DNA of 64,000 nucleotides from Candidatus Nomurabacteria bacterium. GTDB taxonomy: Bacteria > Patescibacteriota > Minisyncoccia > Phycocordibacterales > UBA9973. Made by a program: the position numbers and the translations under genes. Location: positions 207,665 through 271,664 of the forward strand of contig CAWHSF010000003.1 in assembly GCA_963832025.1 (NCBI GenBank), read 5' to 3'. The notes beneath the pieces were generated by a model, which did not search any database, was not told where the DNA came from, and worked only from the letters and a program-made list of their open reading frames with translations. Positions within the stretch are counted from its first letter, which is position 1, and every line of letters begins with the position of its first letter. This document shows, piece after piece, positions 26,060 through 28,760 of the stretch.

Positions 26060-28760
26060 ATGAAATTAGACAAAAATATAGACAAAATAACGATAAAAGG
26101 AGCACGGACCCACAATTTAAAGAATATAAATGTGGAAATGCCTCGCAACAAAATGGTGGTGATTACTGGCGTTTCTGGCTCTGGAAAATCTTCACTTGCT
26201 TTTGATACGATTTTTGCCGAAGGGCAGAGGAGATATGTAGAGTCATTGTCTTCTTATGCACGACAATTTCTTAAATCAAATGCCCAAGCCGGATGTGGAT
26301 GAAATTACCGGGCTTTCCCCGGCGATTTCCATTGATCAAAAATCTCGTTCCAACAATCCGCGTTCCACGGTGGCGACAATCACAGAAATTTATGATTATC
26401 TGCGTGTGATGTATGCGCGCATAGGGCATCCGCATTGCCCTCTTTGTGGAGAAGAAATTAAAAAACTTTCTAACGAACAGATTTTAAATTTTGTTTTGGA
26501 AAAGGTGCAGGGGTTTGGGAAGAAGAATTTCTCAGGTTCCTCCCTTCCTGGAGTACTAGGCGGGTCCCACACCATTCAAAATTCCTCTTCCCAAACCCCT
26601 AAGAATAAAAAACGTAAGGTTATGGGAGTCGAGTGGGACGAAACACAAATTAGCATTTTTTCTCCAGTCGTTCGTGGAAGAAAAGGGGAATACTATCAGT
26701 TACTCTATGATTTACTTAACAAAGGCTTTGCCGAAATCCGTCTAGATGGCTCTATGAAAAAGCTTCGTGAACAAATTATTCTTTCCAAAAACAAAGCACA
26801 CAATATTGATATTTTAGTGGATAAATTCGCAGTGCATGAATTTGTTGACGATAAAGATGGTAGCAGGATGCGTCTCTCCGAAGCATTAGAACGAGCACTA
26901 CTTGAGTCTGACAATCTGGTGACGATTAAAATAGGTGAAGAAGAATTTATTATGTCCGCAAAATTTGCCTGCAAGAATGATGGTTTTTCTTTTCCGGAAG
27001 TTGAACCGAGACTTTTTTCTTTCAATTCTCCTTACGGAGCGTGTCCTGCATGTAATGGTCTTGGTTCAAAATATTTTATGGGAGACGAACCTTGTGACGT
27101 TTGTCATGGCGCACGATTACGTCCTGAAGCGCTAAATGTTTTCTTGAGTGATAAAAATAAAAAAGTTAACATTTTAGACCTCGCATCTCTTTCCATAAAA
27201 GATGCACATGATTTTTTCAAAAATTTAAAACTTTCCGAACAAGAGCGTGAGATTTCTGTTCCGGTTGTAAAAGAAATTGAGGCCAGGTTACAATTTATGC
27301 TTGATGTGGGATTGGACTACCTGCAACTATCTCGCAAAGCAAACACTCTTTCCGGCGGAGAGGCACAACGCATCCGCCTAGCCTCTCAACTAGGCTCCAG
27401 GCTCGTGGGCGCTCTTTACGTGCTCGATGAGCCAACCATCGGGCTACATCAAAGAGATAACGATAGACTCATAAAAACCTTGCAAAATCTACGTGATTTG
27501 GGAAATACAATTATTATCGTTGAACATGACGAGGATACTATCTATGCTTCGGATTACATCGTAGATATAGGACCAAAAGCCGGGGTCCATGGTGGAGAAG
27601 TCATCGTCTCTGGTTTTTTGGAAGATTTATTAACTGCTAACCCCGAAGGAAAGAGTACTTCCTACGGGGCAGGAAAAAATACCCATAAATCTAGAACACT
27701 TGCTTATCTTCGCGGAGAATTAAAAATAGAAATTCCCAAAAAGCGAAGACTCGTCAAAGGTGCACTTCGTATTGCTGGCGGAAAAATTTTTAATATAAAA
27801 AATATGAATGTAGAAGTTCCACTCGGAGTGATGACTTCCATCACCGGAGTCTCTGGTTCCGGTAAAAGTTCTTTCATGTATGAAATTCTTTATAAAAATT
27901 TACAGGCCCGTTATGAAAGAAAATATCGCACGGCTAAAATTTTTAATTGTACTTCATTTTCTGGCACGGAATATTTATCAAGGGCAATTTTAATTGACCA
28001 ATCTCCGATCGGCAGAACTCCTCGTTCAAATATTGCTACCTACACTGGAGCTTTTACACATATTCGTGATCTGTTTGCTACTACAGAAGAGGCAAGGTTG
28101 CGTGGTTGGAAATCAAACCGTTTTTCTTTTAATGTAAAAGGAGGACGCTGCGAAGCTTGTGAAGGAAACGGGGAGATTGCGGTTGAGATGCATTTCTTGC
28201 CGACAGTCTATGTGACTTGTGATGTTTGCAATGGAGATCGTTTTGACAAAGAGACTCTTACCGTGAAATATAAGAAAAAAAATATTTACGAAGTTTTACA
28301 CATGACCGTGGAAGAAGGTGTAAGTTTTTTTAAAGACATTCCAGCAATTTTTGATAGATTACAAACATTGATGAATGTGGGTTTGGGTTATCTGGAACTC
28401 GGCCAATCGGCAACGACTCTTTCCGGGGGAGAAGCACAACGGGTAAAAATCAGTAGCGAACTCTATCGTCCACACTTGGAAAAGACCATTTATCTCTTAG
28501 ATGAACCGACAGTAGGTTTGCATTATGATGATGTGCACAAACTTTTGGAAGTTTTAAATAAATTAGTATCTCACGGAAACACCGTCGTGTTGATTGAGCA
28601 CAATCTCGATATCGTAAAAAGCTCCGACTATATAATTGATATCGGACCGGAAGGGGGAGTAAGTGGTGGTAATATAGTAGCCAAGGGTACCCCTGAAGAA
28701 GTGGCCAATAACACAAAAAGCTACACCGGGAAATATCTCAAAAAAGTGCTTAAAAAATAA
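26060..28760 (+). CDS. uvrA: excinuclease ABC subunit A, interrupted by a +1 frame change near 26271-26276
   Basis: ORFs 26060-26302 and 26256-28760 join as ...SYARQFL(N/K)[22 protein letters not shown]. Two ABC modules (GVSGSGKSS x2, LSGGEAQR x2) and zinc-finger CxxC pairs. Confidence 0.9.
26510..26599 (+). repeat. family B palindrome-ended repeat (90 bp), in-frame inside uvrA
   Basis: TIR GGGGTTTGGGAAGAAGAATTT / AAATTCCTCTTCCCAAACCCC (1 mismatch); encodes [30 protein letters not shown]. Confidence 0.8.
27641..27669. repeat. GC-rich hairpin in-frame inside uvrA
   Basis: CCCCGAAGGAAagagtacTTCCTACGGGG (11-bp stem, 1 mismatch), followed by CAGG; encodes [11 protein letters not shown]. Confidence 0.5.

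Follow-up and report, generated by a model that had tools for sequence, protein, structure and literature searches.

The 90-nt hairpin found in frame in the uvrA gene of the window (the whole stretch of 64,000 nucleotides that was analysed) is probably one copy of a dispersed, non-autonomous, selfish palindromic DNA element of Candidatus Nomurabacteria/Paceibacteria, similar in kind to the Rickettsia palindromic elements (RPEs) and translated together with its host genes. We put the probability of this reading at about 0.68. Translation of the insert is suggested by the maintenance of the open reading frame. The features of the window that are discussed below are the following.

26060..28760, + strand: host gene uvrA; a 1-nt insertion at ~26270-26277, found in this assembly only, breaks the frame
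26510..26599, + strand: family-B (B1) hairpin element, in frame in uvrA; 90 nt, ~30 residues encoded
26510..26530, + strand: left arm of the uvrA element; outer part host-like, inner part family end
26531..26578, + strand: loop or core of the uvrA element, 48 nt; CCC ... GGG around a 5-bp inner hairpin
26579..26599, + strand: right arm of the uvrA element; repeats the left arm in inverted form, save for one A·C mismatch
29195..29286, + strand: second copy of B1, at uvrC site 1 between RGK and FGP, in frame; 98.6 bits
29612..29703, + strand: related B2 element, in frame in uvrC site 2 (between HINDVALIK and RIEAYD); 58 bits

The element in uvrA and its relatives in uvrC

The letters quoted for 26510-26599 in an earlier, sequence-only reading of this DNA match the window exactly, and the 90 nt do make 30 codons, free of stops and in frame in uvrA. 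The peptide given there, GFGKK...SQTP, is a correct reading; it spans 26511-26600, however, base 26510 being the third base of a CAG codon. The encoded peptide is hydrophilic and rich in Gly, Pro, Ser and Thr. When the arms are compared, GGGGTTTGGGAAGAAGAATTT differs from the reverse complement of AAATTCCTCTTCCCAAACCCC at 1 position, and these are the 21-bp inverted termini with one mismatch that had been reported. The inverted repeat is real, but its outer ~10-13 bp are site-specific and lie outside the family consensus. The outer part of the left arm (~26510-26519, GGGGTTTGGG) coincides with host coding sequence (x-F/L-G/E-K-K) that is present in empty alleles too, and the outer ~10 nt of the right arm (CCCAAACCCC) mirror this host flank. 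The inner part of the left arm, AAGAAGAATTT, is the end common to the family. Within the core, an inner hairpin at 26547-26560 (5 bp, AGTA loop) is followed by the conserved unpaired TCCCACAC. The RNA folds as a single long hairpin with an MFE of -41.7 kcal/mol (z = -4.7), an energy reached by none of 200 shuffles, and the MFE of the minus strand is -46.3. The covariance model of the family matches the element with 102 bits (E = 1e-18).

The relative reported in uvrC at 29196-29285 agrees with the uvrA element at 79% over 70 nt, in register and ungapped, and the two are read in the sense direction and in one phase, as had been stated. With the arms excluded, the two cores agree at 34/48 positions, against 16.9 ± 1.8 (maximum 28) in 20,000 shuffles; the two-block core pattern occurs 2 times in the window, where 0.00 are expected. 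The uvrC site-1 copy has a perfect 25-bp stem and a 42-nt loop (MFE -47.8, z = -9.3). The B2 element at uvrC site 2 has a different core, with a TTCG-loop inner hairpin, and a stem of ~26 bp; the sister genome L001 has a B1 core at this site. Copies of the window and of L001 have the GTTCCTCCC/GGGTCCC variant in common across different sites. These results support the claim that the uvrA segment is an in-frame inserted hairpin element of a family shared with uvrC.

This assembly has one frameshift each in uvrA and uvrC. Because the sister genome is intact, both are probably sequencing errors, and pseudogenisation is the less probable explanation.

Filled and empty alleles

The element lies between the first CxxC zinc motif and the conserved 10-residue block of UvrA, where the sequence-only reading had put it. 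For this placement we used sequence alignment to UvrA proteins of the PDB together with Pfam; an AlphaFold model, built on a shallow alignment of 51 sequences, had a mean pLDDT of 40 and was unfit for placing the insert. Residues 87-128 have no counterpart in the PDB sequence alignment, and the possibility that the insert is a segment general to UvrA is thereby contradicted by the solved structures from other bacteria. Among the 120 closest orthologues, the distance between the anchors is 95-97 aa in empty alleles and about 122 aa in filled ones. The segment is missing from about one quarter of these orthologues and from more than half of 80 species-level relatives, and the DNA of the 80 species-level loci gives the same picture of empty and filled alleles. 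In the UvrA tree filled alleles are interspersed with empty ones, and the length variants at orthologous sites are all divisible by 3 and stop-free in the host frame. The comparison of alleles thus shows that the element is an insertion and not an ancestral segment.

Census of the family

Matches to the covariance model lie at the uvrA site, at two uvrC sites and in polA, nearly all of them sense, in one phase and of a length divisible by 3. The long intragenic hairpins of the window are all located in polA-uvrB-uvrA-uvrC, which had raised the suspicion that the family is confined to DNA-repair genes; an unbiased metagenome census ruled this out. That scan gave 125 copies, 110 of which share one frame; a further 10 are reversed, again in one frame, and no more than 5 may be non-coding, so that ~96% of the copies lie inside ORFs. 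The hosts are at least 12 housekeeping genes with at least 15 non-homologous sites; the genes that bear copies include those for LeuRS, an RluD-like protein, an FAD oxidase, UvrA, UvrC, IF2, LigA and PolA. What the copies share is a unit of ~66 nt, made up of AT-rich ends (AARAATTY/RAATTYTT) and a GC-rich asymmetric core. The inverted ends are conserved over ~8-11 nt only, and the remaining stem is specific to the site. The scanned viral contigs contained no copies, and in the contexts inspected there was no B-type match beside a transposase-like ORF and no mobilising enzyme was identified. Nor was any transposition event observed directly.

Each copy is lengthened by an inverted repeat of its own site, and the arms vary a great deal: the median stem is 22 bp, 97 different left arms occur in the 125 copies, and the LeuRS site alone has four unrelated arm sets. 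Such site-specific arms, mirroring the host flank, would be expected if there were no mobile element at all and palindromes formed again and again on the spot, through errors of fold-back or template switching in a lineage tolerant of long inverted repeats, the core spreading by no other means than gene conversion and the exchange of whole alleles by horizontal transfer plus homologous recombination. Flanking direct repeats are distributed as in a shuffled control, and this absence of target-site duplication also fits a local origin; nearby 6-mer direct repeats show a marginal excess (10 vs 4.9 ± 2.0). Moreover, the 'empty' uvrC site-1 alleles already have a covarying 10-bp hairpin, and the hotspots carry many unrelated hairpins. 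Cores are also homogenised within one genome, whose copies have core variants peculiar to it in common: the two copies of L161 have identical cores (64/64) and different arms, those of L118 have cores alike at 59/64 positions and a private stem variant in common, and both copies of L154 are of subtype B1'. Against a purely local origin stands the recurrence of the same ~66-nt unit, ends included, at the many non-homologous sites and in the many genes counted above. This requires a step of copying and insertion, so that local origin overlaps with the explanation by a selfish element and does not replace it; taken by itself we consider it rather unlikely.

Pairing of the arms

The outer ~13 bp of the stem are site-specific yet ~94% complementary. 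From one orthologue to another the stems change in a compensatory manner, and such changes affect 20 of the 31 pairs of the seed alignment. Over 91 copies, 93.2% of the cells are paired, against 66.4% after shuffling and at most 55.7% with slid partners, and double changes are seen in 24 of 30 pairs. Between the window and the sister genome L001 there are paired changes, G>T in one arm and C>A in the other. The inner stem is kept across the peptide variants PGVPG, PRVRG and LRVRS. From these alignments the constraint is clearly indicated to be on nucleotide pairing and not on the peptide.

The question then is whether the pairing is maintained in RNA or in DNA. A functional mRNA structure, such as a site for RNase III or another nuclease, a translational pause site or the site of a regulator common to many housekeeping mRNAs, would account for the covariation as selection on RNA pairing; the very strong covariation in three helices, the UUCG-type loops of some core variants, the 88% of copies that are sense and the conservation of the unpaired core motif are all in line with it. 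However, G·U pairs make up ~1% of the cells over the 91 copies and are no commoner than A·C, and among the mismatches of the outer stem A·C (17) outnumbers G·T (10). The fold of the minus strand is as good as that of the plus strand or better. At two sites the core lies the other way round between homologous arms, the length being the same. Many close relatives have the same gene with the site empty, and others have unrelated hairpins at the same site. A search of Rfam, with gathering thresholds as well as with permissive ones, yielded no more than chance-level hairpins of miRNA type, far below the gathering scores, and a scan for promoters and terminators found no T-run terminator and no -35/-10 hexamers. 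A functional mRNA structure is therefore improbable. The scarcity of G·U pairs, the fold of the minus strand and the inversion of the core lead us to favour maintenance at the DNA level; the covariation that the sequence-only reading had proposed to look for is real, but it resembles the upkeep of a palindrome in DNA rather than a selected RNA structure.

A separate observation is that the asymmetric unpaired part of the core (TCCCACAC and the AGTA loop) is strongly conserved, for which correction of the palindrome alone is insufficient. This conservation hints at recognition of the unpaired core by some factor.

Reading frame and encoded peptide

One frame accounts for 88% of the copies and for about 65% of the distinct sites. 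Avoidance of stops predicts a weaker bias than this, because 40-60% of copies have other frames open too. Given this bias, some selection could play a part, whether for the peptide or for the sense strand. One may go further and suppose that selection acts on the inserted peptide (…NFSGLTLPGVPGGTHTVQNSS…) as a protein module, such as a flexible linker or a motif for interaction or modification, and that the hairpin is incidental; the dominance of one frame where others are often open, and the hydrophilic, Gly/Pro-rich character of the peptide, would agree with this. The residues, however, shift with every flip of the stem (PGVPG to PRVRG to LRVRS), where a copy is reversed the peptide encoded at that site is an unrelated one, close relatives are empty or have unrelated peptides, and the host proteins have no functional relation to one another. 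We regard a selected module as very improbable.

GC-rich palindromic mobile inserts are bypassed in the mitochondria of Magnusiomyces, and a stable hairpin inside a coding region recalls such cases, but that the element is removed or skipped at expression, by excision in the manner of an intron or by programmed bypassing of the kind known from T4 gene 60 and the yeast mitochondrial byps, is hardly credible, since the divisibility by 3 and the stop-free host frame found in all copies and length variants would be unneeded in a skipped segment, and no stop codon follows any take-off site.

Proposed mechanism

A selfish palindromic element of the kind favoured here would be kept up at the DNA level by the templating of the nascent strand on the opposite arm during replication, that is, by template switching at a quasipalindrome, a mechanism established for E. 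coli, phage T4 and yeast (PMC7202029). Template switching would perfect the palindrome and lengthen it as far as the nearest constrained codons, and recombination between the arms would flip the core. Through the short shared ends, cores could be moved or overwritten between hairpin sites, by template switching or by gene conversion; this would account for the hotspots that hold different core types in different species. On this reading the elements sit in linkers of housekeeping proteins or in variable loops at their surface. The inserted peptide would then be functionless, and the uvrA site, as a linker ahead of the UvrB-binding domain, would tolerate it for that reason.

How a copy reaches a new site is a more tentative matter. 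A cut-and-paste mechanism like that of MITEs is unsupported, because there is no target-site duplication beyond chance. Mobility might possibly be transposase-free: the ~66-nt core would be copied into a new site by template switching via its AT-rich ends, fold-back copying of the host flank would build the site-specific palindrome, and the latter would subsequently be kept perfect, inverted and re-seeded with new cores. The family would then be a self-propagating 'palindrome nucleus', by which essential proteins of ultra-small CPR genomes gain loops.

Implications

Genomes of CPR bacteria (Patescibacteria) are assumed to be streamlined, yet selfish hairpins would be present, and translated, in their most conserved enzymes, such as UvrA, UvrC, PolA, LeuRS, IF2 and LigA. 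This, if confirmed, would be the second independent case of the RPE type after Rickettsia, and one for which metagenomes give hundreds of natural replicates. The elements could serve as a test bed for the transposase-free entry and the persistence of palindromic DNA in coding regions, for the long-term upkeep and extension of palindromes by template switching, and for the birth rate of protein loops. There are practical consequences too: the inserts inflate and fragment gene calls in CPR genomes, they disturb alignments and phylogenies of CPR marker proteins, and their covariation can be mistaken for that of a structured RNA.

Comparison with known systems

A literature search for such elements in CPR, Patescibacteria and Parcubacteria gave nothing relevant, and the class of in-frame palindromic elements appears to be undescribed in CPR bacteria. 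To our knowledge, there is no description of template switching as the process that maintains a dispersed family of intragenic repeats over the long term. In quasipalindrome template-switch mutagenesis (Ripley 1982; work of the Lovett laboratory) the nascent strand likewise copies the other arm and perfects an imperfect inverted repeat, but the process is known as a mechanism of point-mutation hotspots in E. coli, T4 and yeast (PMC7202029).

The bacterial MITEs (Correia/NEMIS, ERIC, BOX, Nezha) are also small, multicopy and non-coding by themselves, and they occasionally form intragenic in-frame fusions (PMC10969869). They have terminal inverted repeats, of which the present family conserves only ~8-11 nt. 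The present copies are intragenic in ~96% of cases rather than intergenic, and the family has no target-site duplication and apparently no parent IS element. A classical MITE with target-site duplication was rejected, the flanking direct repeats being at the shuffled level. REP/REPIN sequences, which are mobilised by RAYT transposases, are hairpin repeats whose two arms evolve in concert, but they are extragenic and tied to a RAYT gene, in contrast to the largely intragenic copies found here, for which a non-systematic inspection showed no RAYT. PARCELs are dyad-symmetric coding sequences that spread within and between genomes; they differ in that amphipathic units of 25 residues are repeated in tandem, in proteins of the surface or membrane whose function is unknown, whereas the elements described here are single insertions in conserved cytoplasmic enzymes.

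The closest likeness is to the RPEs, which, in the account of Ogata et al. (2000) given in PMC10969869, are dispersed in-frame palindromic repeats. As here, the repeats are short and often sit in frame in unrelated housekeeping genes of a bacterium with a small genome, the extra peptide is compatible with the function of the host protein, and no transposase is associated. We know of no report, for RPEs, of arms that mirror the host, swapping of core types at hotspots, inversion of the core in place or homogenisation within a genome. The hosts differ, being Alphaproteobacteria in one case and Patescibacteria in the other, for which reason sequence homology is not to be expected, and so does the size, RPEs having ~100-150 bp against the ~66-nt shared unit and ~90-nt hairpin found here. 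Judged by their sequences, the present elements are palindromic, dispersed, in frame and absent from orthologues, and would thus belong with the RPEs in one functional class.

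Host genes and the hairpin in uvrA

Pfam assigned the following genes around the hairpin.

Genes near the uvrA hairpin
19828-22434: polA
23700-25949: uvrB
26060-28760: uvrA
28834 to about 30142: uvrC
after uvrC: SpoU methylase
opposite strand: fpg and ruvA

The UvrA proteins most similar to the window's (83-100% identity) are all from metagenome-assembled genomes of Candidatus Nomurabacteria, Paceibacterota or Parcubacteria. The ORFs of uvrA (26266-26280, …CTTAAATCAAATG…) and uvrC (29800-29812, …AAGAATCAGA…) are each split by a 1-nt insertion in an A-run. Both genes are intact (890 and 432 aa) in the closest relative, the sister genome L001 with 80% nucleotide identity over uvrA/uvrC, so the frameshifts are private to the window's assembly; they probably reflect homopolymer errors in the sequencing of a long contig and not pseudogenes.

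Segment 26510-26599 reads GGGGTTTGGGAAGAAGAATTT-[48 nt]-AAATTCCTCTTCCCAAACCCC, its 21-nt ends being inverted repeats with one mismatch. As a single strand it folds into one long hairpin (RNA MFE -41.7 kcal/mol, z = -4.7), with none of 200 shuffles as stable, and the minus strand folds at -46.3. Sequence and fold agree on the hairpin described in an earlier, sequence-only reading, which had also proposed a core common to uvrA and uvrC (29196-29285), both copies having the same orientation and frame. A repeat finder aligned 26520-26589 with 29206-29275 without gaps at 79% identity and detected a perfect 25-bp inverted repeat around the uvrC copy. With the arms removed, the two loops agree at 34 of 48 positions, above the maximum of 28 in 20,000 shuffles (16.9 +/- 1.8), and a two-block core pattern had exactly 2 matches in the window (0.00 expected). 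Both copies lie within long ORFs in the sense orientation and the same codon phase, are stop-free and have lengths divisible by three. The finding is real and its interpretation is supported, with a single nuance: a CAG codon ends at base 26510, so the 30-residue peptide of that reading is encoded by 26511-26600.

A dispersed family in coding sequence

A covariance model was built from a gap-free seed alignment of 13 sequences and 92 columns. In the window it identified three copies of the element (B-type).

B-type copies in the window
26510-26599, sense: uvrA
29196-29285, sense: uvrC
29616-29699: uvrC site 2 (HINDVAL...RIEAYD), B2 core

Applied to 1.47 Mb around uvrA from 80 genomes, the model located B-type copies at four hotspots, namely the uvrA site, uvrC site 1 (RGK...FGP), uvrC site 2 and one polA site. 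Nearly all are in sense, in one phase and divisible by 3 in length; uvrC site 1 also has two copies in reverse, which are still open. An unbiased pattern scan of metagenome contigs gave at least 125 copies at at least 120 loci. Among the 125 listed, 110 are read in one frame (…KNSSGLTLPGVPGGTHTVQNSS…), 10 in reverse orientation share a single frame (…RGSHSVLREG…), and at most 5 are candidates for a non-coding location. The frame bias is larger than stop avoidance would predict, since 40-60% of copies have other frames open.

Within the window, long intragenic hairpins are confined to polA-uvrB-uvrA-uvrC. A family specific to repair genes is ruled out by the metagenome scan, because the hosts among the listed copies include a FAD-linked oxidase and a RluD-like pseudouridine synthase (two sites each), LeuRS, IF2, MnmA, KsgA and a protein of ~260 aa, as well as UvrA, UvrC, LigA and the UvrD/PcrA helicase. 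A scan of viral contigs returned 0 copies, a search of Rfam gave no family match and a terminator/promoter scan gave no signal.

Insertion at the uvrA site

The distance between the ISIDQK and RGRKGE motifs was measured in 120 UvrA orthologues. The spacing is 94-97 residues in about 27 of them (a short, "empty" form) and ~122 residues in many, which contain KKNFSG-LPGVPGG-HT-QNSSS; in yet others, inserts of a quite different kind occupy precisely this position. The DNA of 80 species-representative genomes gave the same pattern, more than half of the sites being empty. The B1 core, the type of the window's uvrA copy, or its subtype B1' (CGCG mid-stem) occupies the site in 11 of the 80; the remaining filled sites hold the related B2, B3 or B4 cores, coreless "solo stems" or unrelated inserts. 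Essentially all inserts here fold into a hairpin, and the reading frame is kept at 84/84 loci. Solved UvrA structures align with residues 4-86 and 129-272 of the window protein and have no counterpart of residues 87-128, and the Pfam UvrA interaction (UvrB-binding) domain begins directly after the insert. In a neighbour-joining UvrA tree, filled alleles of every type are scattered among empty ones. On this comparative evidence, the uvrA segment is an insertion.

Anatomy of the element

Across 91 copies, conserved sequence is limited to columns ~14-79. The conserved unit has AARAATTY…RAATTYTT as its ends; between them lie a short mid-stem, a CCC/GGG helix that is invariant, an inner hairpin of 4-5 bp, usually with an AGTA loop, and, on the 3' side, a conserved unpaired (A/T)CCCACAC. 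At the outer ~13 stem positions, each of the four Watson-Crick pairs is about as frequent as the others. The stem has a median of 22 bp, 97 different left arms occur among the 125 listed copies, and the site-specific portion is ~94% complementary.

In uvrA the left arm coincides with a stretch of host coding sequence (x-F/L-G/E-K-K-N), found in empty alleles too, and the right arm is an inverted copy of it. At uvrC site 1 a perfect 15-26-bp stem, particular to each species, extends as far as the codons for the conserved RGK and FGP. In some "empty" alleles of this site, 21 residues long (L001, e.g. ~13083-13145, L008, L012, L057, L059, L068 and L072), the residues N-V-K/E-H/N-x-V-F-N-K are specified by a perfect hairpin (10-bp stem, 3-nt loop), which covaries among species (GTTAAACAC/GTGTTTAAC, GTTGAAAAC/GTTTTCAAC, GTTCAACAC/GTGTTGAAC) and may be a remnant of the element or a nucleus for one. 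Target-site duplications around the copies were undetectable.

Pairing as the conserved trait

RNAalifold predicted 31 pairs in the seed alignment, and in 20 of these both partners have changed in a compensatory manner. In the 91 copies, 93.2% of cells are paired (66.4% with shuffled partners; no more than 55.7% when partners are shifted by 1-3 columns), and 24 of 30 pairs are changed on both sides (628 cells). Between the window and L001 the uvrA arms show paired changes (GGGGTTTGGG/CCCAAACCCC to GGGTTTTGGG/CCCAAAACC), and therefore stay complementary after insertion. The same inner hairpin encodes PGVPG, PRVRG and LRVRS, and the peptide is unconserved where the stem flips. As judged from these alignments, the conserved trait is the pairing.

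G·U pairs make up ~1% of cells in the 91 copies. Mismatches in the site-specific stem are at least as often A·C (17) as G·T (10), and an A·C mismatch recurs at fixed positions of the shared ends. Folding of the minus strand equals or exceeds that of the plus strand. Both core orientations occur, within homologous arms and at equal total length, at one and the same site of the ~260-aa protein and also at uvrC site 1; recombination between the arms would have this outcome. The scarcity of G·U, the A·C mismatches, the minus-strand fold and the inverted cores point to a constraint on the hairpin at the DNA level.

Probable core exchange within genomes

Copies in the same genome have private core variants in common and different arms. 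L161 has two cores that agree at 64/64 positions; two in L118 match at 59/64, both with CCAGG/CCTG; both copies in L154 are B1'; and the window and L001 copies have GTTCCTCCC…GGGTCCC in common across different sites. At uvrC site 2 the sisters differ in core (B2 in the window, B1 in L001) and in arm length. From this it follows that cores turn over more rapidly than sites, which accounts for the many core types at hotspots.

Other repeats and hairpins

Further elements in the window
27641-27673, uvrA: 33-nt in-frame mini-hairpin (CCCCGAAGGAAAGAGTACTTCCTACGGGGCAGG), 13-residue peptide
28765-28833, between uvrA and uvrC: inserted 69-nt AT-rich hairpin element (CCCGTACTAAATTTT…AAAATTTTAGTACTGG)
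10939-11024: copy of the 69-nt element, 73% identical
24736-24833, uvrB: 98-nt in-frame hairpin, 18-bp stem
20936-21010, polA: 75-nt segment, 85% complementary with the core of the 98-nt hairpin (same element, opposite orientation)
24350-24385, uvrB: in-frame hairpin, 15-bp stem, AACGTCGGACCTTAAGGGGATTCAAGGTCCGACGTT
30634-30717, 36571-36654 and 32682-32722 (inverted): intergenic ~84-nt repeat family
45035-48967, minus strand: 1310-aa ORF with long tandem repeats (periods 243 and 261 nt, 5 copies each)
60927-61240: exact 157-nt tandem duplication directly after two tRNA genes
15793-15826 (ORF 15777-16388, minus) and 37431-37461 (ORF 37163-38590, plus): intragenic perfect hairpins, 14-bp stems, common motif CCCACACC…GGTGTGGG

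The 33-nt mini-hairpin is missing from L001; its peptide recurs elsewhere in other genomes, since P0034/L035 have it at the uvrA hotspot, L121 near the N-terminus of UvrC and L152 near that of UvrA. The mini-hairpin appears to represent a second, smaller in-frame hairpin family. L001 also lacks the 69-nt element, uvrA and uvrC being 4 nt apart there. The uvrB/polA element, whose peptide type (…RRHSHSVLEGKD.SG…) recurs at uvrC hotspots of three relatives (L025, L031, L076), is probably the "family A" of the sequence-only reading. A hairpin related to that at 24350-24385 is found at the uvrA hotspot of L015 (10470-10560, GGTCGGACC…GGTCCGACC). The ~84-nt repeats contain an internal hairpin that covaries among copies (CTGGCAAAGCTTTGCCAG vs CTCCGCAAGCTTGCGGAG).

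Proposed mechanism

The element is an in-frame, dispersed palindromic repeat resembling the Rickettsia palindromic element (RPE), and its site-specific arms undergo compensatory evolution. Our joint reading, to which we give roughly two chances in three, is that of selfish DNA that is translated through, maintained by template switching, with a core inverted between its arms and copied between sites. Intramolecular template switching, which is established for quasipalindromes of E. coli, T4 and yeast (PMC7202029), would maintain and extend the hairpin; recombination between the arms would invert the core; and copying between hairpin sites via the short shared ends would spread it. Lengths compared at three sites fit both an arm made at insertion (fold-back copying of the flank) and later growth of the arm. 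The conserved asymmetric unpaired motif and the frame bias beyond stop avoidance are outside what this mechanism explains.

Comparison with known systems

Full-text literature searches, of incomplete coverage and giving absence of evidence only, returned no account of such elements in CPR bacteria, and RPE-like intragenic palindromic elements in this phylum seem unreported so far. PARCELs are tandem amphipathic repeats in surface proteins (PMC2996958), a context not comparable with the present one. The element lacks a detectable target-site duplication, unlike a MITE, and the extragenic location of REP/REPIN sequences. The closest analogue is the RPE (PMC10969869), which likewise is inserted in frame in housekeeping genes and has no transposase. 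The present element differs from it in host phylum and size, and in its site-specific arms, hotspots of core turnover, in-place inversion and intragenomic homogenisation; its mechanistic features are worth following up.
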